DNA from: Escherichia coli
GTDB lineage: Bacteria > Pseudomonadota > Gammaproteobacteria > Enterobacterales > Enterobacteriaceae
Reading direction: 5' to 3' (one strand)
DNA length: 41,445 nucleotides
Assembly (NCBI RefSeq): GCF_016903815.1
Contig: NZ_CP069975.1
Shown here: positions 3,991 through 27,885 of the stretch, piece by piece
Layout of the letters: each line of letters starts with the position of its first letter
Numbering within the stretch: position 1 is the stretch's first letter
Notes under the pieces: model-generated
Told to the model about the DNA's origin: nothing
Databases searched by the model: none
The model's input: only the letters and a program-made list of their open reading frames with translations
Position numbers and translations under genes: made by a program

Positions 3991-5420
3991 TCCTCCTCAT
4001 ACGAAATATTAAAGGTGGAGTTTTCTGTATCCAGATAAACGAAATCGTAAAAGCCGTTGGACTCATTCCACTCGACAAATTCCAGATAAAAGTCGCGGAA
4101 ATAACCCAGCGTTTCGATAAATGCCCAAACGTCTTTTTTCTTGATTAGGATGTACTTGCCGACACGGTTCGGATCAAAGAAAGTTGAGTCACGCCCAAAT
4201 TTTGTTTCCAGTGCCGACTTCAGCTCATCAGTCACGTTCTCAATGGTCAGGCTTGCCGATATCCGCCCAGTGATAGTGATCTTAAAGGGGAGTTTTCTGA
4301 CCTCTTTATACGAGAATTTCTTGTTCAACTCATTCGGCACCTTCTTAAAGGCAGCCAGGATCACTTCTTCAAGCTCTGACTGGCTTTTGTTTGGATGCCA
4401 TCCTGAAATAAATATCTTATTGATATTCCGAACATTATAAGCACCATCTAATTTCTCTTGCTGGCCTTCGCCCCATGCCTTTACCCAGGACAGTCCCGGG
4501 ATGTTACGCACCAAAAAATACGTATAGTCCCCGCCCCATACGACCTGATCATCATAGGCAAGGTAATATTGTGCACGATTACGTGTGATCTCCGTTGTTT
4601 CGGCATCGGTACCTGCGGTTATGGGTGTCGTTGTCTTAACTGAAATCAAATTAGCTAAATTAGCCGCAGAATCGACAGGCGTCAGGTTTTGGCCAGCAAC
4701 CAGGGTTATATCTCCGTTGGTGCACCATACCTTAAGTGTAATGGTCGAGCCTTCTGGCGGTATTTGCCCAATTAGCCCATCACCGAATCGAACCCCCAAC
4801 TGCTCGGATGGCTTATAAAACTCAACGTAGACCTGGCTTTTACTACCGGCTAACCGGAACATAGTGCTGGAAGACCACTGCGTGGTCTTACCATCGGTCG
4901 TCACGAATACTTCCAGCTTATAGCAGACAGCAGTGAGAGCCTTTGATAACACGACTTCCAGAAATTCTTTGGCTGCCGTAACGGTATATGTCACCTCCTG
5001 GATTTCCAACTGTGCCACTTCTACCGTACCGGTGCCGTCAACCAACCTGCATACATCCATAGTCATGTAAGGGTACTGGTCGTCAGATATTAAAGGCATA
5101 TTTTTGGGGATTACCGCTGGGGCATCTTCACTTGTGGCGGTGATCTCAATCATCCCCGATGACGGTGTTGGCTTGGTACCAACGTAACTATTCGTTTCTG
5201 CCGCTGCCAGGATAGAGGAACGCCGCGTCGCGGTCGATATAAAGCCTTCAGCCAGCGCCGCATCGGCATACTGAAAGCACCTGTAGACAATCTGGGTAAT
5301 AAACAATGTCAGCATCGAGACAAATTGAGAGCCGACAAACTTCGACCAGAATGAATCTTTCTCGACAAGCTCTTCAAACTCTGCACGAATACTGTCTTTA
5401 GTCGGTGTTGTTTTACTCAT
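3987..5420 (-). CDS. Baseplate protein (P1 BplA-like by position)
   Basis: 477-aa ORF in tightly packed structural operon; 4-nt overlaps with both neighbours. Confidence 0.6.
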   Translation of the reverse strand: MSKTTPTKDSIRAEFEELVEKDSFWSKFVGSQFVSMLTLFITQIVYRCFQYADAALAEGFISTATRRSSILAAAETNSYVGTKPTPSSGMIEITATSEDAPAVIPKNMPLISDDQYPYMTMDVCRLVDGTGTVEVAQLEIQEVTYTVTAAKEFLEVVLSKALTAVCYKLEVFVTTDGKTTQWSSSTMFRLAGSKSQVYVEFYKPSEQLGVRFGDGLIGQIPPEGSTITLKVWCTNGDITLVAGQNLTPVDSAANLANLISVKTTTPITAGTDAETTEITRNRAQYYLAYDDQVVWGGDYTYFLVRNIPGLSWVKAWGEGQQEKLDGAYNVRNINKIFISGWHPNKSQSELEEVILAAFKKVPNELNKKFSYKEVRKLPFKITITGRISASLTIENVTDELKSALETKFGRDSTFFDPNRVGKYILIKKKDVWAFIETLGYFRDFYLEFVEWNESNGFYDFVYLDTENSTFNISYEEE

Positions 5421-5776
5421 AGCACCACGTCCTGTGTGATAGTTATATCCCTGATACGAATGGATATTTTCAACTTATCAAAAGCATCTCCCTCGGCTAC
5501 TGACAAGCCAGAAATCGGTATGTCAGGTAAATCTACCGTCAGTTTTTGCAACAGCATTGCCTCAACCGCAATTTGAACATGCGACAAGTTGGTCGGTTCG
5601 TGTTTAAACTGCGGTAAAACATTGCCCCATGACGGATCTCCGTATACCTCACCCTGATAAGTGTTTAGCCACTCATATAAACGAGCGCCCCAGGCCTCCT
5701 CCTGGGACTCATACGTTTTTACGCCGGATAACTCCAGCGTCAGTAAAGGATCAATTTCATTATTGTTGGCCATCAA
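5417..5776 (-). CDS. Small morphogenesis protein (P1 PmgA-like by position)
   Basis: 119-aa ORF, translationally coupled on both sides. Confidence 0.5.
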   Translation of the reverse strand: MMANNNEIDPLLTLELSGVKTYESQEEAWGARLYEWLNTYQGEVYGDPSWGNVLPQFKHEPTNLSHVQIAVEAMLLQKLTVDLPDIPISGLSVAEGDAFDKLKISIRIRDITITQDVVL

Positions 5777-8700
5777 TCAACTCTCGCGTAGTCATTCATC
5801 AACGGATCATCAATTGACAGTGGCACCGTGCGCATAACGCCCGGTTGAGGCGTGCTGACCTTTACGACAGTTCCCTGGCCTTTCGCCGAGTCTTTAGTGT
5901 GCTCTTCAATCCTGGCAAGCAATGAGGTCATCTGCGCAAACAGCCGCTTCGTTTCACCATCAAGTGAAACGGTATTATCAGCCAACTGCATTGTCGGCTT
6001 GGCACCGGAGCCGCCAAGGTCACTAATAACCTGTCCGTCTATCTGCATACGACCGGTTGGTTGCTGCAAATCGTTGGCGGCAGTCGTCACCTGGGACGTG
6101 GAGGCTGGTTCAGGCGCATTATTTTTCCGCATCCCCGGCGAGTTGCGGAGTTTATCAAATAGTCCATCAATCCCCATTTGTGCGCCGAGTTGGTCAAAGT
6201 AACTTGAGTTGCTGGCCACCGGACGCGCCTCTTCAACTGGCATCGGAGTATCAACATACACATTGCCAGCTGCTGTTGCGGTCCCCTTCCCTCGTGCACG
6301 TTCTTCGAGCGTTCCCTGAACGACTTCCCGACGCATACCCCGGCCATTCATGAATTTGTTGACCAGATCGTTAACGCCAACAGCATTGCCAATTTTGTCT
6401 ACCAGACCGCCTTTCTCAAACGGGCTATCACCAGGGGTAAACGCCAGGCCAGTAGACTGATCGATAACAGCGTTATCAGGCAGTGGTCCCCTCACTCCAT
6501 ATTGCGCCCCACCCTGTGCTCCTGCTCCAGGTGTATAGATTTCACCACCTAAATAGCGAGCACGATGAGTATTGACCTTGATCGCGTACTCACGGTTTTC
6601 TTTCGATAAGTCACCTGTGCCTTTTTTCCACTTATTGATAGTGCCAAACCCAGCATTATATGCAGTGATGGCCTCGTTTAAGTCTCCATTGGCTTGCTTC
6701 AGATATTTGCTCATGAGAAGAGCCGCAGCTTCTGCCGATTTCACAGGATCAAACGATTCACCTTCAGCTAAGCCAGTCTCTTCACGAGCAATCCCCGTGA
6801 ACTGAAACATCCCCAGAGCACCGGTTTGGGATTTTGCATACGGATTACCACCAGATTCAGTTGCAGCAATCGCGTAAAGAGTGCCTTCTGGAAGACCGTA
6901 TTTATTCTCTAGTTCGGCAAAATACGGAGCCAACTTATCGAGATTTGCCTTACCTTCAGCGCCAAGACTTCCGACTTTTACATCCAAGTTGCCATTGTTG
7001 TAGGTATCCGCAGCTTTCTGAATGTCATTCCTGGTGCCAGTGGTATTAAGCGACGATGATGACGAGCTATTTTGACCAATAGCTTTATCAATTTTCTGCA
7101 ACGCGCTATTGCCCGTTTCTACGGCATTTGCATTGATAATCTGATTAGCAGTTTCTTTAACTGTTTTATTGCTATCTTTCGCCGTATCTAGGGATGCATT
7201 TACAACACGAGTGACAATATTAGCCTTTTTAGGGGTATATTCAGTCTTAGGAGCATTGTCCTCCTGACTTTCTTTAGCTGGTGTTTTTAATTCAGGTGTA
7301 ACCTCTTTCGCATCCGCTTTGTTGACTAGCTTTGATGCAACCCAGGCCACAGGGGTGCTCTGAACAGCGGCATCTGCAACCTCACCTGAAAGCTCTTTTG
7401 CGGCACTCCATAGATTACTGCCAGCTTCTTTAATGTATTTCCCTGGGTTCTTAATGAAATCAATTGCACTATCAATTGCATCACTGAAAACCTGTTTCAG
7501 GTTATCGACAGTAAAGAAGTTTTTGATGGCGTCTAATTTTTCGTTCAGGTTCTTTGTTGTGTCACTGAACCATGCTGAAATAGCATCACCAATCTTTGCA
7601 GTATAATCACTAAATGTCGTGGATATAGTATCACCAAGGTTAGAAATATATGTTTCTAAATTGGTAATCCCACTATCAATGGCCTGGGCAATACTTTCCG
7701 TCGAAAATGATTGCAACATATTGCCGATATCCTCAAATCCAAGTGATTTGAGAACGCCGCCAATGGCACTGCTAATACCAGATACCAGTCCTCCCATATC
7801 GAGAACGTTAGCCAGTGTATAAGCCGCTTTTTGCTGAAAAGATGGATCTTCCCCATCCTTAAGCCCAAAGGTCCGACGTTGTGCTTCTGTATCATTCCAA
7901 CCGGTTACCGCATCATAGATACCTCCAGCCACCGTGCCGACTAGCGGAATTGCGCGTAAAGCCCCCTTTGCAAGAGCCTTAACACCTAGTTTCCCCAATC
8001 CCTTAGTTGCAAGTTTTCCGGCACCGCGAGTAGCCAATTCGCCAGCTTCTTTGGCAGCAGCTTTTTTCCCACCAAAGCCCAATAAGCTTGCAACTTTTTT
8101 TATACCTAAAGCGCCTAGTGCCATCGAGCCAACTTTCTTTAGTACCCCACGGCCAAAAATAAGGGAAGCAATACCACCGGCCCCCTTCCCTAACAGGCTA
8201 AATAGTTTGGACAGCAAGCCGCCCTTCTTTTTCCCGGTGTTTTTGGCTATCTGATCAAGGGCGCTGAGAATCTTGTCATTGCCCTCTTTAATTTCGCTGG
8301 TCTGCTCCTGAAGTTCCTGAACCGTCCGTTTTTGGGTGTTAACCTGAACGACATCGGCACTATTTTGCGATTTACGCCTAAAAAAACCTTTTCTACGGCT
8401 GTTATCGTCATTGCCACGAATCACATCGGCAATAGACTTTCTGGCACCATTAAGCGATCCACCAACTTCTTTTGATATCCCGCCAAGCTCCTTCCCTGCT
8501 GCCCACAATGGACCAGCAACGGCATAACCTAACGCATCGACGGCACGAGTCTCTGAAGGGTTACCTATGCCTTCAGCTACTTTTGACAGTTTTTTTAATA
8601 AACCTGATTCAGCATTTAGACGCTCATCATCCTCTTTGCGCCTGGCCTTTTCAGCACGTTCAGCACGGACATCTTCCGCTGCGGCCTTACTCCCTGACTT

Positions 8701-21245: not shown

Positions 21246-22952
21246 TTACTCAGAGTCACCAGCATCAATCGTGTTACCGGTCAGGAAGTTAATTCCGCCA
21301 TTTTTTGCCATAGTCAGAGTTACACGGGTGAAGTAGTCAGCACCGTTGCGTGGATGCATATCGTTGATAGCCGAACCCCACAGAGTGGTTCGGTTGACTA
21401 GTGCCGGGGTGGTCGGATGCTGGAATGGGACAGCCGGGACTGCATCACCAGTTACGAAGCCCGCTTTGCCCGGATTTTCATCACGGACGTAGCACAGCAC
21501 ATCCATTGGGCTGAACTGGATACCGTCGGCGGTCAGGTTCGTACAAATACCTTCTGGTACTTCGAACACTTTGACGTTGCCGAACAGAGTGCCAATGTAG
21601 TGGACGTATGGGGTCTGGATGTAATCTTCTGCTGGCTGGAAGAAATCCTTCGGCAATTGTTTGAAGAAAGATGCCGCATCAGCACCGGCATACATCCCCA
21701 TCGCACCAGAAGATTTAACACGCTCAATAATACCGCGATATACCGTCTGGAATTTGCCTCGAATGATGGTTGCCCACACATCAAAGGTCTGGTTAGCTGG
21801 TAGTGCAATATCAAAGGAGTCGGTCGCAAGAGTTCGCCAAATCATGATACGAAGACGAAGCATATCTTGCTCATGGGACAGGTATTCCTTCAGGGTGCGG
21901 AACTGTAGGGAGCCAAGATCCAGACCAAATTCACGCTGTGCTTCATACGCCGCCTGTACCGTGTGCTCAGCCGCGATGACGAACTGGTTTGGGAACAGGG
22001 TGTAACTCTTCATTTCGTGGTTGATAAGTGGGATCAGCTCAGGAGCTGCTTCTATATTGATCTCCGCCTCAATGGCGATCTCAGTGCCTTTATCCGGCGC
22101 TTTGGAGAACGACAGGGCAATCTGACCAACGTTGTAATTCAAAGAGCAAGTAACAGTGATTTGTTCGCCTGCTTTGTTATTGAATGTGTGAAGCAGAGTA
22201 CCGGAGCCGTTATCAACAACAGACTTAATACGGTTAACGTAGATGTTTGTGCGACCTTTGCGAATCGGGACATTCTGACCTTCGACATCTTCCATCTTGA
22301 AGGTTGCAGTTTTGCTGGTGCCGTCGGAGCTTGCAACCAGCACATAGCGGCGGCGCAACTGGCTGTACACGCCAACGGATTGCATGTCCAGAACATCACC
22401 AATAGCATAGGAGCCAAAAGAAGAACCCGCTACGTTAAAGATTTCATAGATTTCGGACTTGTCACGCGTAACCGGAATGAATGTACACGCATCAGCGGTA
22501 GCTGCCCCCAACTGAACAGGCAGGATCATCGCCAAGAATAAAGGCAGACGCATAACCCCGTCAGAAACACTCATCATCTCTGCCGCGACTGATTCCAGCA
22601 TCGCTTTATTGGTGGCGTCCATGCTATTGCGGGTGGACTCAATCAGGCAGTTTTCCAGCGTCTGATGGCAGGAGGCCAGAATTTCCGGACGTGGCATAGA
22701 TTTATGTGTTGCGGCGTAGTCAGCCAGTGCACTTGCCCACGCTGTAGCGATTTGAGCGGTGGCATTATCAGAGATACCCGCAAAAATTGGGTCTTTACGT
22801 GCAGCTTCAAGGATAGATGCGGCACGCGCGGCATCATCTTTAATGAATTGGTTATCAGTACCGAACTGCGCAGTGCTTGCCCAGCCAAGCACAGCTTTAG
22901 AGCGTTTTGCGATATCTGCAATACGATTCTGGTATTCGCGTAAGTTACTCAA
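21246..22952 (-). CDS. Major head (capsid) protein (P1 gene 23-like by size and position)
   Basis: ORF track 21246..22973 starts at TTG; I place the start at in-frame TTG 22952 preceded by AAGGAAGAG (no in-frame ATG nearby). First gene after the candidate late promoter 23004-23028. Confidence 0.55.
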   Translation of the reverse strand: MSNLREYQNRIADIAKRSKAVLGWASTAQFGTDNQFIKDDAARAASILEAARKDPIFAGISDNATAQIATAWASALADYAATHKSMPRPEILASCHQTLENCLIESTRNSMDATNKAMLESVAAEMMSVSDGVMRLPLFLAMILPVQLGAATADACTFIPVTRDKSEIYEIFNVAGSSFGSYAIGDVLDMQSVGVYSQLRRRYVLVASSDGTSKTATFKMEDVEGQNVPIRKGRTNIYVNRIKSVVDNGSGTLLHTFNNKAGEQITVTCSLNYNVGQIALSFSKAPDKGTEIAIEAEINIEAAPELIPLINHEMKSYTLFPNQFVIAAEHTVQAAYEAQREFGLDLGSLQFRTLKEYLSHEQDMLRLRIMIWRTLATDSFDIALPANQTFDVWATIIRGKFQTVYRGIIERVKSSGAMGMYAGADAASFFKQLPKDFFQPAEDYIQTPYVHYIGTLFGNVKVFEVPEGICTNLTADGIQFSPMDVLCYVRDENPGKAGFVTGDAVPAVPFQHPTTPALVNRTTLWGSAINDMHPRNGADYFTRVTLTMAKNGGINFLTGNTIDAGDSE

Positions 22953-23003
22953 TTTACTCTTCCTTAAACACAAGGCACTTGTGTGAATCCCTTTTCGGAA
23001 GAG

Positions 23004-23028
23004 ATTTTATTGAAAGTCACTTGTTGAC
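23004..23028 (-). promoter_or_regulatory. Candidate late promoter of the head/sheath operon
   Basis: Gene strand: GTCAACAAGTGAC (23028-23016), 6 bp, TAAAAT (23009-23004); about 50 nt upstream of the gene 23 start. Confidence 0.45.
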
Positions 23029-23084
23029 TTTCTCGTGACAAGCAATTTTTTTATTTTTTTTCGGGAGTAGGGGAGGAAGGTAAA

Positions 23085-23178
23085 ATCCAAGGTGAAATCG
23101 TGGCGATTTCACCTTGAAATTTTAGAGTGATTTACTTTAAAAACAGTAGTTTAATAGTGAAATTTGAATGGCGAAAGT
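23085..23178. promoter_or_regulatory. parS: parS-like partition site (ParB heptamer/hexamer boxes flanking an AT-rich, IHF-like core)
   Basis: GTGAAATCGTGGCGATTTCAC (23091-23111) and TAGTGAAATTTGAATGGCGAAAG (23155-23177) carry ATTTCAC-type heptamers and TCGCCA hexamers (as TGGCGA), separated by AT-rich DNA; immediately downstream of the parB stop. Confidence 0.65.
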
Positions 23179-24180
23179 TTAAGGCTTCGGCTTTTTATCG
23201 AGGCTCTTTCTAAGGATATGCCCAATCATCCTGTCGAGTTCTTCCTGTAGCTCTTTTGAAAGTCGATTAAACTCATAAGAAAATGCACGGCCTTTCACGC
23301 GCTTCCTTGCAAAGCGATCCTTGTCCTCAAATTTCCATAATTCAGTAACTACGGACTTATCTTTAGAACCTTTATCCGTGAGTAGTGAGGCTTCCTTTGT
23401 TATCAAGCGCAGGATTTTATTTTTAACTTCATCTTCGGCCATTTCTTCAATGGATAAGATGTCGTTTATTTCCGGGGATATGTTTTGAATAAGCTGATCA
23501 AACTCTAAATTCTTGTTCCCCATTTCGTCGCCAACAGCACAAAGCGTTTTGTAGTCCGAAAAGGTTAATTCCGACTGCACAGGGAAAAGGGCGACTAATT
23601 CTTCCGGAGCACTCGCTGCCTGGAGAGCACGCGTGACCTTCGCCTGAGACAGCCCTTCTTTGGCTGCAATATCCTTCTGACTCATCCCATCATTTTTCAT
23701 TCGCATCAAACGCAGACCTATTTCTCGAATGCTGTGCTGCAATGCTGTCTGAACGTCTTTCGCTAAATTTTGCGCTTCCTGAACGCTGATCTCCTGGTCC
23801 GTGACTAAAACCCGCAACCCTACGTTCTCTAAGATGGCAGAAGCTCGACGCCGGGAACCATCCAAAATTTCAATTTTCCCTGTAGCCCGTCTAACACCTA
23901 TTGCAGGGTAAAATTGCTGATGCTTAATAGTGCTTCGGATACTTTTTAATGATTTTGGCGTAAGAGATGCCTGGTCACGCCCGTTGTTATGCTGATCAAC
24001 AAAGGTATCGCTTTCTACCTGGTTCGGAGGTATTACCTCTTCAATAAATGTGGCCTGGCGACCAGTTGATAACTTGAATACCTGCTCGACTCGATCGCCA
24101 GAGGCTGAAGAACTATCAAATCCGCTTAATATTGAAGGATTAAGGGTTCGCCCAATTGTTGGTCTGTTTTTCTTTGACAT
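23179..24180 (-). CDS. parB: Partition protein ParB (centromere-binding)
   Basis: 333-aa ORF downstream of parA with a 16-nt gap; followed by the parS-like site. Confidence 0.85.
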   Translation of the reverse strand: MSKKNRPTIGRTLNPSILSGFDSSSASGDRVEQVFKLSTGRQATFIEEVIPPNQVESDTFVDQHNNGRDQASLTPKSLKSIRSTIKHQQFYPAIGVRRATGKIEILDGSRRRASAILENVGLRVLVTDQEISVQEAQNLAKDVQTALQHSIREIGLRLMRMKNDGMSQKDIAAKEGLSQAKVTRALQAASAPEELVALFPVQSELTFSDYKTLCAVGDEMGNKNLEFDQLIQNISPEINDILSIEEMAEDEVKNKILRLITKEASLLTDKGSKDKSVVTELWKFEDKDRFARKRVKGRAFSYEFNRLSKELQEELDRMIGHILRKSLDKKPKP

Positions 24181-24196
24181 GGGGGTTTCTTACTCC

Positions 24197-25393
24197 TCAG
24201 TTAGATCTGATAAATTCAATACGGTCAAAAACTGCTTTAGCAAAATCTTCCGCAGCAATTCGCGCGTTCTTCAATGCATCAGCACTACCAACATACGTTG
24301 CCGGGTTAGCTGAAATAACAGTGTCAAAAGACTCGCCGCAGCGTTCAAAACCGTCAAGGCGAGGGAGGACAACATCAAGCATATCCCCACCGAACACTTC
24401 TTTAGCCAGGCTATGGCAATACTTATGGTCTGCCTTGTTACTCAACTTGGACATAAAACCAATGTTAGTTGCAAGCTGACACTCGCAGCCTTCATCCGAA
24501 ATGAGTTTCACCAACTCAGGAAGGCGGGCAACGTATTTAAGCGATGAGTGGAAATCAACCGTTGCAGGCGGCAGAGGTGTAAACAGTATATTGGCCGAGG
24601 CCAAAGCATTTTTCAGGAAGGCGTCAAGGTGAGGACCACTATCAACGAGGATAAAGTCATAATCGCTCTTCAGCTTATCAATCACATTTTCTTTCAGGAC
24701 TGCATGGATGTTCTGACCCGGTAGATGCTCATTGCACAGCTCTCTCCAATCGGATGCAATAAAGGCATCGTCAATCGACGCAGGCATAACGTCAACCCCA
24801 GGTACAACAGAAGGAACAATAAACTCCTCTAACAGCTCTTCACGGCTTACATTCTGCAACATAGCCTGTGCAGATGTTGCGTTTACGATACCAATAGAGT
24901 GTTTATGGCTTAAAAACATCGTTGCTGAAGATTGCGGATCAAGGTCAATAACCAGAATCCTTAAATCTTCCATCAGAAGATGAGGATGAGCACGCATTGC
25001 ATGCGCCAGAGAAACCGTCGATACAGTTTTTGACACACCGCCTTTAAGATTGGAGATGAAAATCACATACGCTTCGCTGTAGCGATCCCGGTATTTTGGC
25101 ACTCCGCGATGTTCATATATGTCAATGATGTTCTGAATTGACATCGCATATTTCATTGAAGAGCCAGCAGGGCGTTTATCGAAAACATAACCCTTTTCTT
25201 CCATTTCACTTACGGCATAGTCAACGTTCGCACGAGTCAGTAGAGGCAATTTTGCCAGTGCCGCTTTCGCATAGACCTGGTAAAACTCGTTCGCGTGTAG
25301 CTCATCCTTTTGCAACTGTACTTGTTCAGTCAGAACATTGAGCATTCTATTTGCTCTTTGAGCAACCTTGTGAAGCTGGCTGGAATCACTCAT
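24197..25393 (-). CDS. parA: Partition ATPase ParA (type Ia, with N-terminal DNA-binding extension)
   Basis: 398-aa ORF with deviant Walker A KGGVSKT and ParA-type motifs. Confidence 0.9.
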   Translation of the reverse strand: MSDSSQLHKVAQRANRMLNVLTEQVQLQKDELHANEFYQVYAKAALAKLPLLTRANVDYAVSEMEEKGYVFDKRPAGSSMKYAMSIQNIIDIYEHRGVPKYRDRYSEAYVIFISNLKGGVSKTVSTVSLAHAMRAHPHLLMEDLRILVIDLDPQSSATMFLSHKHSIGIVNATSAQAMLQNVSREELLEEFIVPSVVPGVDVMPASIDDAFIASDWRELCNEHLPGQNIHAVLKENVIDKLKSDYDFILVDSGPHLDAFLKNALASANILFTPLPPATVDFHSSLKYVARLPELVKLISDEGCECQLATNIGFMSKLSNKADHKYCHSLAKEVFGGDMLDVVLPRLDGFERCGESFDTVISANPATYVGSADALKNARIAAEDFAKAVFDRIEFIRSN

Positions 25394-25408
25394 CGAAAGT
25401 CATCCTTT

Positions 25409-25444
25409 ATGCTGTATTTTTGAATTTAATTAAAAATGCTGCAT
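25409..25444. promoter_or_regulatory. par promoter/operator region (imperfect inverted repeat)
   Basis: ATGCTGTATTTTT...AAAAATGCTGCAT imperfect dyad 16-50 bp upstream of the parA ATG, in AT-rich DNA. Confidence 0.5.
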
Positions 25445-25532
25445 AAAATAATAATGTATGCGTAGATGCTTGTACATAGCATTTTCTGCATGTTTGGTTC
25501 ATTTTGCACGATTGAGAGTTACAAGGAGGGCA

Positions 25533-25555
25533 CAAAAAAGCCCCGTTCAGGGGCA
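25533..25555 (-). terminator. Rho-independent terminator after the two-gene insertion cassette
   Basis: On the minus strand GCCCC-TGAAC-GGGGC followed by TTTTTT; starts 7 nt after the stop of the 25562..25810 ORF. Confidence 0.7.
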
Positions 25556-25561
25556 TCAGTG

Positions 25562-25810
25562 TTATTTGCTAAGAGCAGCGAATAATCGTTCGAAATCGAT
25601 AGTATCTATAGCACGCGTAAGCGCCGGAAGTTCAGCCTCAAAGTACCCGTGTCGATCGTAAAAGAAGGGACCGAAGAGCGAGGCATGTTGGATTCTACTT
25701 CGCCCCAGCCCGGACACACAGTTAAGCCCATTACCGGCTAAAAGGCTAAAAAACTTCTCTGGATTATCGTGGTAAAGCTGGGAATCAATGGTGGCGGTTA
25801 ACTCTTCCAT
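25562..25810 (-). CDS. Small hypothetical protein, translationally coupled to the upstream T5orf172-like gene
   Basis: ORF track 25562..25822; likely start ATG 25810, lying 13 nt inside the end of the upstream gene (ATGGAAGAGTTAA overlap); followed by a terminator. Confidence 0.5.
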   Translation of the reverse strand: MEELTATIDSQLYHDNPEKFFSLLAGNGLNCVSGLGRSRIQHASLFGPFFYDRHGYFEAELPALTRAIDTIDFERLFAALSK

Positions 25811-26373
25811 AGGGAAGCACACCCGCCCTGTATATCCCAGGGATATTTAGTCCGAAGCATAAACATTGCTTTCAGCAATTCACATTGAGCGCGGATCGCG
25901 TCCGGTTCATAGCCAGATATGGAGACATAAGCCACGTCCCTCATTCCTGCGTCATCTTTGAAAGTCACGATAGAAGTAACATCCAGCTCTTTTTCGAAAG
26001 AGCAAGCAGCATCTACTGGACGCTGAAGTAAATCATTCGACTTAATGCGCTCGAGAATCCCTCCCCACATATCATTTAGATATTCGATATGAGCCAAAAC
26101 CTTATCAAGACACTCTCGTGTAAACCATTCAGTATGCCCGCCACCGACGCTTTTCTCCCACGGCGCATTCCAGGGGAAAAAGGTTGCGTGTAAAGCCCGC
26201 TCAAGATTAACCATTGCCAAACGCGTACCACGATAGACCCGTGAAAGCGCAAAATCGGGACTCACTTGTAGCCCTTTAAACCGTGCCAATGGACCACATG
26301 AAATGCCGATTTTAAAAGTATCTCCGTTCTCTGGCACCAGAACGTAGAGGTAGTGTTGTTTCTCTTCTTGCAT
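25798..26373 (-). CDS. T5orf172 / GIY-YIG-like domain protein (cargo gene between incA and the par promoter)
   Basis: 191-aa ORF; N-terminal YLYVLVPENGDTFKIGIS...RFKGLQ...LERALHATF...GGGHTEWF matches the T5orf172 domain pattern as I recall it (hydrophobic strand, KIG, conserved LH, terminal EWF). Confidence 0.6.
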   Translation of the reverse strand: MQEEKQHYLYVLVPENGDTFKIGISCGPLARFKGLQVSPDFALSRVYRGTRLAMVNLERALHATFFPWNAPWEKSVGGGHTEWFTRECLDKVLAHIEYLNDMWGGILERIKSNDLLQRPVDAACSFEKELDVTSIVTFKDDAGMRDVAYVSISGYEPDAIRAQCELLKAMFMLRTKYPWDIQGGCASLWKS

Positions 26374-26399
26374 ATCAATACCACTGCTTGATGAGAACC

Positions 26400-26665
26400 G
26401 CGCAAATGTTGACTATGCGCGAAGGTTAATGTGAATAGTTGACTATGCGCGATGTGACTACAGTCAAAAGTTGACTGTAGTCGATTTAACTCCACCAAAG
26501 ATCGACTATGTAAGATATTGTCGGGAGAAACGTTGACTATACGCGATGAAATGCCCCTAAAAGCCATCTCAATAGCGACTTGCAGAATATTGACGCCAGC
26601 AAAAATCCACCAGCGTCAACGAATGTCGCCTATAGTCAACTTCTCGCTATCGCATATAGTCAATA
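26400..26665. repeat. incA-like iteron array (RepA-binding control locus)
   Basis: At least 7 copies of a ~15-bp iteron TTGACTAT(G/A)CGCGA and variants, in both orientations: 26408, 26437, 26470, 26503, 26533; inverted copies at 26624 and 26650. Confidence 0.8.
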
Positions 26666-27550
26666 TTATGGATTGCGCTTATGGATCTGGAAGCCGATTT
26701 TCCTGCCGTTTTTTATCTCTGAAAATTTAAGATATTCAATAGCTTCCAAATCTTTCATGGCTTTTCTGATAACGCTATTTTGCACGCTAACGGATGATTT
26801 GAGATTAAGCCTCGCTCTAAGGCGCTCAATGCTGACAGGTGCCGGGTTGGCGGGTAGAGCCTCAAAGAATGTATACAGTACCTTGGCCGTCTCTTTGCGC
26901 CCTAGTTTATCCAGCATCTTCAGCTTCAGGATTCGCTTATAGTCAACATAGTAAAGTTCAGATAGCTGTTTCTGCGGCTGGATCTCGATAACATCAAGCT
27001 CGGTATTCAGGCTGCTATATGCCAACAAGTTGACGTTAATGTTATTGAGATGACCTTTTGCCGCCGGGAAGCGGAATTTGACAACTGTCTGCTGAATGCG
27101 TGTCAGAGAGTCATCAATACTTTTACGGAACGCCTTTGAAAGGCGCTTACGTGGATAGCCGCATCGATCGGCAAACTCGGAGAATGGCAGGGTGATTATG
27201 CCGTCATCATCAGGTGCGTAGTCAAACAACGCGGAGGTTATGCCCACCCACACCTTAAAATCAGTATCCATATCCAGGCGTGGACCATGAATTTCAATTC
27301 CCTCATAGCCTTCCTGCTCAACAATTTTGAGGCTTGATAGTTCTTCAGTTGCGTTCGTTGTGTTTGTTGTAACTGACGATCCGCGACGTAGCGCCACATT
27401 GGTAGATTTTAAGGTTGGCACAAACACACCTAAGCGCAACAAAGCGATGGGTTGTATAGTGCTGTTGTTATTGGGCTTCAGGCTGTGGATTTCTCCTGTA
27501 TTTCCTGCAACTTCTTCAACGCTAAGGAAGCCTTTACTTTCTTCCGGCAT
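26666..27550 (-). CDS. repA: Iteron-binding plasmid replication initiator RepA
   Basis: ORF track 26666..27586 starts at TTG; start placed at ATG 27550 with GGAGAAA RBS. Flanked by iteron arrays on both sides. Confidence 0.8.
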   Translation of the reverse strand: MPEESKGFLSVEEVAGNTGEIHSLKPNNNSTIQPIALLRLGVFVPTLKSTNVALRRGSSVTTNTTNATEELSSLKIVEQEGYEGIEIHGPRLDMDTDFKVWVGITSALFDYAPDDDGIITLPFSEFADRCGYPRKRLSKAFRKSIDDSLTRIQQTVVKFRFPAAKGHLNNINVNLLAYSSLNTELDVIEIQPQKQLSELYYVDYKRILKLKMLDKLGRKETAKVLYTFFEALPANPAPVSIERLRARLNLKSSVSVQNSVIRKAMKDLEAIEYLKFSEIKNGRKIGFQIHKRNP

Positions 27551-27589
27551 CACGGTTTCTCCATGTGTGGCGCGGCCTGACGTCAATTT

Positions 27590-27850
27590 GGATGGCTGTT
27601 ATCAACAGCTGTGAATATTCAGACTCTAAAATCGCTTACAGTCAATGTTTCTGTCGCGTATAGTCAACAATAAATCGCGTGCAGTCAACAATAAATCGTG
27701 CACAGTCAACATAAAATCGCGTATAGTCAATGTTGATCCCATTTCAGGCCAGTAATGACGCGGCTTACAGCGATCCGGGATCTTCTTTGGATCTTCCTAG
27801 GTTCTCTTTAGGATCTGTTTATTGGATCTATGCTGTGGATAAGTTGAATA
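27590..27850. promoter_or_regulatory. Plasmid origin oriR / incC: five iterons, GATC cluster, DnaA boxes
   Basis: Five direct iterons TCGCGTATAGTCAA-type at 27625-27735. Six GATC sites within 95 bp (27735, 27772, 27779, 27790, 27812, 27825). DnaA box TGTGGATAA at 27834-27842 and TTATCAACA-like box near 27612. Confidence 0.8.
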
Positions 27851-27885
27851 AACCGGCCAACAAAGCCGGTTGGAAGGAAGTCATA

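Follow-up and report, generated by a model that had tools for sequence, protein, structure and literature searches.

The window, that is, the whole stretch of 41,445 nucleotides that was analysed, carries between positions 26400 and 27850 a repA gene, iterons on both sides of it, a cluster of GATC sites and a DnaA box. The repA gene lies on the minus strand (26666..27550) and encodes a predicted iteron-binding initiator of the Rep3 type; the initial annotation had placed a repA gene here, and it was recovered as a 294-aa ORF running from 27550 to 26666. Its ATG is at 27550, with GGAGA located 7 nt upstream. A longer, TTG-initiated ORF from 27586 was rejected as the repA start, the public annotation using a different one. 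In the Pfam scan, RepA scored 27.1 bits against Rep3_C (cut-off 21.1) and a borderline 21.8 bits against Rep3_N, slightly under the gathering cut-off of 22.4. The NCBIfam scan returned no family for either the window RepA or P7 RepA, and sequence search against the PDB gave chance-level matches only. The best Foldseek PDB matches of the AlphaFold model (pLDDT 78, pTM 0.71) were RctB domains 2-3, RepE, pi, pPS10 RepA WH1 and TrfA, with probability ~1.0, and the modelled fold is that predicted for a Rep3-type tandem winged-helix initiator. RepA is 42% identical to P7/P1 RepA over the full length (E = 9e-71) and 45-49% identical to the RepA proteins of IncFIB, IncFIB(K) and SSU5, which points to full-length homology to both P1 RepA and RepFIB RepA.

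Ten matches to the iteron core TCGCGTATAGTCAA were found in the 41-kb window at ≤2 mismatches, all inside 26409-27730, whereas shuffled sequences gave 0.19 on average and never more than 2. The conserved core, TCG-N5-AGTCAA(C), reaches 2.0 bits at positions 1-3 and 9-14, for which the earlier figure of ~15 bp was a fair description, and the repeat unit around it, 21 bp long, includes an A/T-rich spacer; in the window the iteron reads TTGACTATACGCGA. Five origin iterons, the equivalent of incC, occupy 27632..27730 on the plus strand, as had been proposed from the sequence. They start at 27632, 27654, 27675, 27696 and 27717, with a spacing of 22/21/21/21 bp, and are thus tandem direct repeats about two helical turns apart, reading (A/G)TTGACT-N5-CGA in the direction of repA.

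Downstream of repA, the array at 26409-26663 contains six clear iterons, two co-oriented with the origin set and four inverted, and one or two degenerate copies. The two proximal control iterons (26626-26639 and 26650-26663, plus strand) follow right after the repA stop in the orientation of the origin set. The distal, incA-like iterons (26409-26422, 26439-26452, 26471-26484 and 26533-26546, minus strand) are inverted relative to the origin set and spaced by 30-32 bp, and a degenerate copy at 26500-26514 (minus strand, 10/15 match) lies in phase with them. With this copy, the seven or more incA iterons in mixed orientation of the initial annotation are accounted for, an eighth copy being located inside repA. 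A possible degenerate third proximal iteron at 26603..26620 (plus strand) reads ATTGACGCTGGTGGATTT in the repA direction and matches the iteron unit at 12/18 positions; it forms part of an imperfect palindrome at 26591-26620, and the equivalent stretch in a sister locus (L010, described below) fell into the iteron family at 75% identity, which weakly suggests a third proximal copy. A control array in mixed orientation downstream of rep is the architecture of P1 and RepFIB.

Beyond the origin iterons, five GATC (Dam) sites in AGATCC-type 7-mers (27772, 27779, 27790, 27812 and 27825) are clustered within 57 bp at 27772..27828, where the density across the window predicts 0.23 (Poisson P = 5e-6), confirming the GATC cluster reported earlier. 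The cluster is homologous to the Dam-site cluster of P1 oriR, with ~70-75% identity, and the P1 and P7 records annotate five Dam sites at the corresponding place. A perfect DnaA box, TTATCCACA, is located at 27834-27842 on the minus strand, where the P1 annotation has a DnaA binding site at the aligned position, and is directly followed by a degenerate tandem copy, TTATTCAAC, at 27843-27851 (minus strand). Two inverted DnaA-box-like 9-mers, TTATCAACA and TGTGAATAT (27599-27607 and 27610-27618, each 8/9), lie between the origin iterons and repA; P1 likewise has a DnaA-box-like sequence in this interval, the sister locus has a perfect TGTGGATAA there, and the window pair is on its own statistically indistinguishable from chance. 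Matches to the DnaA-box consensus over the window were not above chance (3 found, 4 expected), so that the boxes take their meaning only from their position and from the alignment to the annotated site of P1. The plural "DnaA boxes" of the initial annotation was generous, because a single perfect box is accompanied by degenerate or 8/9 copies whereas P1 has two perfect tandem boxes. DnaA box(es) and a GATC cluster outside the origin iterons again correspond to the P1/RepFIB architecture. The promoter tool gave no sigma-70 promoter for repA on the minus strand, and the best candidates of a looser scan, at 8/12, always take the TTGACT of an iteron as the -35; as no convincing repA promoter emerged, autorepression is something that we infer.

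The iteron copy inside the repA coding sequence (26933..26946, plus strand) covers nt 604-620 of the gene, encodes V-D-Y-K-R and has one mismatch to the core. Its score with a PWM derived from the five origin iterons beats those of all but 2 of 500 codon-permuted coding sequences. It is conserved at 17/17 nt in the repA of the sister replicon, whose product is 85% identical in amino acids and whose gene is overall 75.5% identical in nucleotides. The copy was present in p0111, in this sister, in SSU5 and in a Proteus plasmid, and absent from P1 repA and from the one Klebsiella IncFIB locus examined; it appears to be recurrent in several branches of the P1/RepFIB superfamily. It could be a roadblock to repA transcription or an extra handcuffing partner. 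We found no mention of it in the literature searched.

To either side, the sequence closely matches that of P1. In BLASTn, P1 aligned at 97.3% identity as far as 25495 and at 97.7% again from 27748, with nothing across 25496-27747 except a 59-bp stretch at 76%. Sliding identity dropped sharply at ~25495 on the par side, stayed at 70-75% across 27750-27845 and exceeded 90% from ~27867. The flanks, 97% identical to P1, carry gp23-parS-parB-parA on one side and upfA-mlp-ppfA-upfB-hrdC-dam on the other, and the remaining window is also P1-like (sit, baseplate, sheath, tRNAs). ParB and ParA are identical to those of P1 at 333/333 and 397/398 residues, and three alignment columns differ between the two parS sites, located between the ParB boxes. 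The block that differs from P1 (25496..27850) comprises a T5orf172 gene, the control iterons, repA, the origin iterons and the diverged GATC/DnaA-box segment. The T5orf172 / GIY-YIG-like gene (25564..26373, minus strand; Pfam T5orf172, E = 3.6e-6), which is absent from P1 and P7, is located between the control iterons and parA. Its counterpart in NZ_CP027133 is annotated as a 269-aa GIY-YIG nuclease family protein, and in the window it is frameshifted by a TA insertion at 25831-25832 that yields ORFs of 191 and 86 aa. Judged from these alignments, a block exchange put the module (25496 to ~27850) in place of its P1 counterpart and left the par operon, the parS site and the phage backbone of P1 intact; the module sits at the repA position of a P1-like phage-plasmid.

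Phage phi456 and dozens of E. coli plasmids contain the segment 26400-27850 at 100% identity. The repA gene of pO111_2, compared through RefSeq record NC_013370, is 98.6% identical to the window repA over 885 bp (292/294 aa), which places the window in the p0111 type, and identity over the whole 26400-27850 module is 97.4%. We take NC_013370 to be AP010962, the PlasmidFinder p0111 reference (E. coli O111:H- 11128 plasmid pO111_2). An independent link to p0111 comes from JL22, which is 98.3% identical to the window in nucleotides and 99.7% in RepA, and which was assigned to the p0111 type (PMC9603915). The type is also carried by phi456, SJ46, RCS47, JL22 and vB_EcoM-Ro157c2YLVW. The p0111 reference has the same iteron positions and a T5orf172 gene in the same place ("gp57" in PMC9603915), and the window differs from it by a few SNPs and by the 2-bp frameshifting insertion in this gene. 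The MOB-suite label in PLSDB for an identical plasmid is "IncHI1B"; this is a naming discrepancy among typing schemes and no biological difference.

The region is therefore very probably the low-copy maintenance replicon of a P1-like phage-plasmid, of the p0111 type, homologous to the oriR-repA-incA region of P1 and equipped with a different RepA/iteron pair. The idea of a RepA/iteron specificity variant within a P1 backbone, put forward in the initial annotation, is supported, RepA being 42% identical to that of P1 and the iteron being different within a shared organisation. It is no new idea: p0111 is an already catalogued type, the module is real but ordinary, and the same inference was stated explicitly before (PMC7969092). 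The proposal of a possibly distinct incompatibility group matches current typing, in which p0111 and IncY are separate types (PMC9603915, PMC11165635, PMC7969092); in surveys, IncY and p0111 figure as two alternative replicases for this site in P1-like phage-plasmids, and their compatibility is presumed. A published p0111 iteron map was not found in our literature search on p0111 iterons.

As the locus lies where the P1 replicon does and has the same overall layout, it might have been taken for an ordinary P1/P7 (IncY) replicon, with the initial annotation mistaken about the P1 iteron. This reading was refuted by direct comparison with annotated P1 (NC_005856) and P7 (AF503408) and is practically untenable. 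Both records carry GATGTGTGCTGGAGGGAAA, the initial annotation being right about the 19-bp P1 iteron, and the window consensus matches it at ~8/15 core positions in a by-eye ungapped alignment. Proven IncY members have near-identical iterons, and RepA of those that are experimentally incompatible (P1, P7, p15B and pPagL15_3) is at least ~72% identical to P1 RepA (PMC10999674); the window iterons are far from near-identity to GATGTGTGCTGGAGGGAAA, and its RepA, at 42%, falls below ~72%. A megablast search with the region found P7 only over the 160-bp GATC/DnaA end, at 78%, and the BLASTn comparison with P1 is blank across 25496-27747 apart from the 59 bp noted above. It is also very unlikely that the module is truly IncFIB, acquired recently from an F-type or Klebsiella plasmid by a P1-like phage. 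In some records the protein does go under the name "RepFIB replication protein A", the identity of RepA to its IncFIB, IncFIB(K) and SSU5 counterparts (45-49%) slightly exceeds that to P1 RepA (42%), and the iteron shares ~9/13 core positions with the Klebsiella IncFIB iteron TGTCTACTGTATGCTA in a hand alignment. However, an identity of 45-49% is no closer than that of a separate branch of the same superfamily, well short of a near-identical RepA, and the iterons of E. coli FIB (AAACTGTAGTCAG), of IncFIB(K) and of SSU5 (CCACTGTAGAGAG) differ from TTGACTATACGCGA, so that they are not of the RepFIB type; the p0111 core (≤2 mismatches) was found in 0 of the IncFIB loci examined. Among the best-scoring 5,000 PLSDB records, none had an identity between 90% and <60% except two at 80-90%, and the sole close sister (85%) belongs to another phage-like plasmid; because there is no donor of intermediate identity, recent import from IncFIB plasmids is rejected.

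The frameshift in the adjacent T5orf172 gene could suggest that the whole module is a decaying remnant and that the element is kept by another replicon. This is extremely improbable: repA is intact and >99% conserved across hundreds of records, and the iterons are all conserved in pO111_2, NZ_CP027133 and phi456. Moreover, RepA is the only annotated plasmid initiator in the stretches examined of the ~90-100 kb P1-like records, and the lytic replicon repL serves a separate function.

For the p0111-type maintenance replicon, a mechanism may be proposed by homology with P1 and RepFIB. RepA monomers would bind the five 21-bp-spaced origin iterons and, together with host DnaA at the flanking box(es), would open the adjacent Dam-methylated GATC-rich segment, leading to theta replication. 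The iteron array downstream of repA would titrate RepA and pair with the origin ("handcuffing"), which would keep the copy number low and be the main determinant of replicon incompatibility. Origin-bound RepA probably also represses repA, each iteron containing a -35-like TTGACT. In P1, two groups of iterons control initiation, copy number and incompatibility (PMC10999674), and in FIB the downstream iterons alone displace a FIB replicon, with control described by a handcuffing model (PMC11983097). The iteron core (TTGACT-N5-CGA) and RepA are both far from those of P1, so that no cross-reaction with IncY replicons would be expected. RepA-iteron binding, mini-replicon or incompatibility experiments on the p0111 replicon were not found in the literature searched.

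An intact p0111 module is widespread: it was present in 414 of 5,426 complete E. coli genomes (~8%) and in 373 PLSDB records at ≥80% coverage. Both the IncY and the p0111 modules were found in only 2 of the 5,426 genomes, compared with 27.5 expected, so that co-residence is ~14-fold rarer than under independent assortment (hypergeometric P = 7e-11). A new specificity would lead one to expect p0111 and IncY P1-like elements to occur together often, and in this respect the count speaks against the proposed reading of the replicon. The two genomes were counted by inclusion-exclusion (414 + 361 - 773), and one or both could be fragmentary matches, because a 59-bp match such as that of H144 counts. 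It has been suggested (PMC7969092, PMC11165635) that the replicon swap is an incompatibility escape that lets IncY and p0111 P1-like prophages live in one cell. The divergence of iterons and RepA from those of P1 and the two complete genomes with both modules, on different records by the same inclusion-exclusion, speak for an escape, but the observed co-residence, 2 against 27.5, speaks against it, as does the par system of the window, nearly that of P1, since P1 is incompatible with plasmids that have a P1-type ParB-parS (PMC10999674); a shared phage immunity is to be expected as well. We thus regard an escape as rather unlikely. From what is essentially the P1 par system and the count of 2/5,426, co-residence of the whole elements is rare in practice, and the deficit may be due to the par system and phage immunity that the two have in common. 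The near-absence of co-residence suggests, contrary to the surveys, that the replicon swap is not what governs the coexistence of P1-like prophages. That this holds and, separately, that the intragenic iteron is a functional RepA-binding site is a joint reading which we offer tentatively, as possible but somewhat doubtful.

The significance of the locus is mainly one of bookkeeping, the module being one of two markers (IncY and p0111) for P1-like phage-plasmids in the surveillance of resistance elements. The strong deficit in co-residence, together with the unchanged P1 par system, calls for caution: a different replicon type should not be equated with an ability to coexist. The iteron map presented here, with a TTGACT-N5-CGA core, five origin iterons, six to eight control iterons and one intragenic iteron, could aid the design of curing cassettes, because downstream iterons alone displace FIB replicons (PMC11983097), and also that of compatible P1-derived vectors.

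Among known systems, P1 and P7 have the layout of the module. In all of them the locus is located between parA and upfA, five origin iterons are ~21 bp apart, the outer end has five GATC sites and a DnaA box, and the downstream iterons are co-oriented with the origin set proximally and inverted at ~31-bp spacing distally. The distal set of the window is the counterpart of P1 incA iterons 1-6 (inverted, ~31-bp spacing), and the proximal pair that of incA iterons 7-9 (co-oriented with incC). P1 differs in having nine downstream iterons (3 + 6), as opposed to six clear and one or two degenerate copies, and two perfect tandem outer DnaA boxes in place of one; its iteron, like that of P7, is GATGTGTGCTGGAGGGAAA instead of TTGACT-N5-CGA, and P1 lacks both the intragenic repA iteron and the T5orf172 gene of the window.

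The order of DnaA box, GATC 7-mers, GC-rich spacer, five 21-bp iterons and repA is common to p0111, L010, P1, Klebsiella IncFIB and SSU5, the Klebsiella IncFIB and SSU5 origins having the same layout as the window with five or six iterons. RepFIB (F, P307 and pO157; Klebsiella IncFIB(K)) and SSU5 belong to the same RepA superfamily as the window, at 45-49% identity, and RepFIB follows a similar plan, with origin iterons BCDD'D'' upstream, control iterons E-K downstream and control by handcuffing (PMC11983097). Their iterons differ from those of the window and share with them an ACTRTA-like centre alone. RepFIB and SSU5 are other typing groups. In this sample, the p0111 module occurs essentially in P1-like elements (cf. 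PMC9603915). The sister replicon L010 (e.g., NZ_CP085065), found in phage-like plasmids of ~90-94 kb from E. coli and E. marmotae, has a RepA 85% identical to that of the window, and its iteron, TTGACTATGTGCGA, contains the same invariant TTGACT...CGA. It resembles the window in the 21-bp spacing of its five origin iterons, in carrying the same iteron within repA (nt 604-620) and in the inversion of its distal control iterons; unlike the window, it has a perfect DnaA box between the iterons and repA, and its locus is located between a transglycosylase gene and tail genes, not beside parA.

The replication initiator gene repA lies on the minus strand (27550 to 26666) as a 294-aa ORF starting at an ATG preceded by GGAGA, and is annotated in public records as RepA or 'RepB family plasmid replication initiator'. 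Five directly repeated origin iterons (starts at 27632, 27654, 27675, 27696 and 27717; spacing 22/21/21/21 bp) were located upstream of the gene, at higher window coordinates. Two proximal iterons (26626 and 26650), co-oriented with the origin set, directly follow the repA stop codon, and four distal iterons (26409, 26439, 26471 and 26533) are inverted relative to the origin set at 30-32-bp spacing, with a degenerate iteron in phase at 26500-26514. The core reported by the initial annotation, TCGCGTATAGTCAA, matched 10 times at two or fewer mismatches in the 41-kb window, every time within 26409-27730, against 0.19 expected from shuffled sequences; the invariant positions were TCG and AGTCAA, with five variable bases between them. 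Outside the origin iterons, five GATC sites were clustered in 57 bp (27772-27828), which at the GATC density of the window has a Poisson P of 5e-6. The repA gene, both iteron sets, including the mixed orientation of the downstream one, and the GATC cluster were thus all present as first described, while of the several DnaA boxes proposed a single copy was perfect, at 27834-27842 beyond the GATC sites, and the others matched 7-8 of 9 positions.

An imperfect palindrome, TTGACGCCAGCAAAAATCCACCAGCGTCAA, was also observed at 26591-26620, in the stretch that separates the proximal from the distal control iterons. One of its arms is similar to a degenerate iteron (12/18), and the element may be either a third proximal iteron, for which P1 offers a parallel, or a terminator-like hairpin of repA. 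Promoter scans gave no convincing repA promoter. Each iteron contains the -35-like hexamer TTGACT, which makes autorepression of repA plausible as a prediction.

To place these elements, we compared them with the annotated replicons of P7 (AF503408) and P1 (NC_005856). In all of them repA is located between parA and upfA, five origin iterons (incC in P1) are about 21 bp apart, and the outer end carries five Dam sites and one or more DnaA boxes; incA of P1 and P7 has three repA-proximal copies co-oriented with the origin and six distal, inverted copies at ~31-bp spacing. The P1 iteron assumed initially was correct, and the direct comparison gave TCGCGTATAGTCAA in the window versus GATGTGTGCTGGAGGGAAA in both P1 and P7. 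The window RepA aligned with P7 RepA over its full length at 42% identity (E = 9e-71). The shared layout and full-length RepA homology, together with the different iteron, indicate that the replicon is a P1 homologue with a different recognition pair, so the initial interpretation as a RepA/iteron specificity variant of a P1-like replicon was correct, and the feature is real and well described. IncY members whose incompatibility has been demonstrated by experiment share at least ~72% RepA identity with P1 and have near-identical iterons (PMC10999674); the window replicon falls outside IncY on both counts.

Alignment with P1 gave 97.3% identity up to 25495, a stretch with gp23, parS, parB, parA and the par promoter, and 97.7% identity from about 27748 onward; in a sliding comparison identity dropped abruptly at ~25495. 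At the other end, the GATC/DnaA-box segment (27750-27845) was just 70-75% identical, and more than 90% was reached only from ~27867, which argues that the replaced module takes in the whole origin and not the iterons alone. Judged from these alignments, the swapped module spans 25496 to ~27850. It includes a T5orf172/GIY-YIG-like gene (25564-26373) that has no counterpart in P1 and P7. In phage JL22, repA (p0111) and gp57, a gene of unknown function, stand in place of the IncY repA (PMC9603915), and this pair is the same as that in the window. The T5orf172/GIY-YIG-like gene is intact (269 aa) in NZ_CP027133 and phi456, and in the window it is split by a TA insertion at 25831-25832 into ORFs of 191 and 86 aa. 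Either this accessory gene is decaying or the sequence contains an error; the gene is split in pO111_2 too.

The 1.6-kb replicon region was 100% identical to phage phi456 and 97.7-99.9% identical to SJ46, RCS47, JL22, vB_EcoM-Ro157c2YLVW and several records named 'P1'. In PLSDB, 483 plasmids matched it, and for 373 the match covered 80% or more of the region; most were non-mobilizable E. coli plasmids of ~90-100 kb. The pO111_2 record compared here (NC_013370), which we take to be AP010962, was 97.4% identical to window 22001-31000, with repA 98.6% identical in nucleotides (292/294 aa) and every iteron in place. AP010962, pO111_2 of E. coli O111:H- 11128, is the PlasmidFinder 'p0111' reference (as used in PMC11165635). 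These matches identify the replicon, at the sequence level, as p0111, a type already catalogued in P1-like phage-plasmids, and many public records carry the identical sequence. Such elements carry an IncY or a p0111 replicase, one of two at the repA position (PMC7969092, PMC9603915, PMC11165635, bioRxiv 10.1101/2025.09.12.675607), and the two types are expected to be compatible (PMC7969092), the same inference as was drawn initially; the finding is therefore already known. No description of the p0111 iterons was found in the papers searched. NZ_CP027133.1, which carries the exact window replicon, is labelled 'IncHI1B' by MOB-suite in PLSDB versus p0111 in PlasmidFinder-based papers, a discrepancy that could mislead automated typing.

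Elsewhere in the window, the matches to pO111_2 and to the best P1-like phage hits all began at 1938, leaving positions 1-1937 without a counterpart at high identity. This ~1.9 kb holds the end of an 861-aa tail-fibre-like ORF (128-2713), and the missing match is consistent with the variability of the tail-fibre region among P1-like phages. Genes for three tRNAs, Asn-GTT, Thr-TGT and Met-CAT, were observed at 34445-34598 and 36226-36301; another p0111-type P1-like plasmid has the same three types (PMC9037040).

Co-residence of the two types was assessed in 5,426 complete E. coli genomes with p0111-specific (window 26400-27740) and IncY-specific (P1 incA-repA-incC; 4480-5800 of the fetched P1 locus, L005) modules. 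The p0111 module was found in 414 genomes and the IncY module in 361, and a concatenated query returned 773 genomes and 776 records. By inclusion-exclusion on these counts, both modules occur in just 2 genomes, which could include fragmentary matches, and never in one record, versus 27.5 expected under independent assortment (hypergeometric P = 7e-11, population structure not controlled). The partition system at 23092-25393 is P1's own (ParB 333/333 and ParA 397/398 aa identical), and parS departs from that of P1 at only three alignment columns, in the spacer that separates the ParB boxes. A plasmid carrying P1-type ParB-parS shows partition incompatibility with P1 (PMC10999674), so incB-type incompatibility with P1 would be expected despite the different replicon, and phage immunity is likely shared between p0111-type and P1 elements. 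The rare co-residence contrasts with published statements that both types should coexist and, together with the P1-type par and likely shared immunity, means that a distinct replicon type should not be taken to imply coexistence with P1.

By analogy with homologues, RepA monomers would bind the five origin iterons and DnaA the flanking box, with opening of the Dam-methylated GATC-rich segment, and the downstream array would titrate RepA and handcuff the origin, thereby setting copy number and replicon incompatibility. The P1 scheme of RepA/iteron replication and copy control is summarised in PMC10999674, and downstream FIB iterons by themselves displace a resident replicon (PMC11983097).

A further iteron lies within repA (26933-26946; repA nt 604-620) and outscored all but 2 of 500 codon-permuted repA versions when scored with a matrix derived from the five origin copies. 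It is kept at 17/17 nt in the same place (4604-4620) in the sister replicon L010 (GCA_013513435.1 contig DABKFZ010000018, 39713-48597), the sole close relative, whose RepA is 85% and repA gene 75.5% (nt) identical. This sister is carried by phage-like plasmids of ~90-94 kb in E. coli and E. marmotae (NZ_CP085065, NZ_CP069647, NZ_LR890273 and others), and 7 of 510 PLSDB records matching L010 reach at least 95% identity. It has the core TTGACTATGTGCGA, the overall p0111 iteron layout and a perfect DnaA box between iterons and repA, and differs in position from P1-like elements, being flanked by a transglycosylase gene and by tail genes. Significant intragenic iteron-like sites were also found in repA of SSU5 and of a Proteus plasmid, the latter a full-strength inverted 19-mer; these intragenic sites are at ~2304-2322 of locus L009 and 4424-4442 of L012. 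Neither P1 nor the Klebsiella IncFIB locus examined had one. The pattern, with few independent lineages behind it, is suggestive of a functional site.

Pfam searches gave a Rep3 WH2 match and a borderline WH1 match for RepA, as for P7 RepA. The top PDB fold matches of an AlphaFold model (37-sequence alignment, pLDDT 78, pTM 0.71) were iteron initiators, namely RctB domains 2-3, RepE, pi, pPS10 RepA WH1 and TrfA. The p0111 RepA shares 45-49% identity with the IncFIB RepA proteins of E. coli and Klebsiella and with that of phage-plasmid SSU5, and 53% with a Proteus plasmid protein. By sequence it forms its own branch within the P1/RepFIB superfamily, roughly equidistant from all named groups. 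The origins of p0111, P1, Klebsiella IncFIB and SSU5 share one layout, from a DnaA box through AGATCC-type 7-mers and a GC-rich spacer to five or six 21-bp iterons. Aligned by eye, the iterons of p0111 (GTTGACTATACGCGA), Klebsiella FIB (TGTCTACTGTATGCTA), SSU5 (AACCACTGTAGAGAG), E. coli FIB (AAACTGTAGTCAG) and P1 (GTGTGCTGGAGGGAA) look like variations on one theme.
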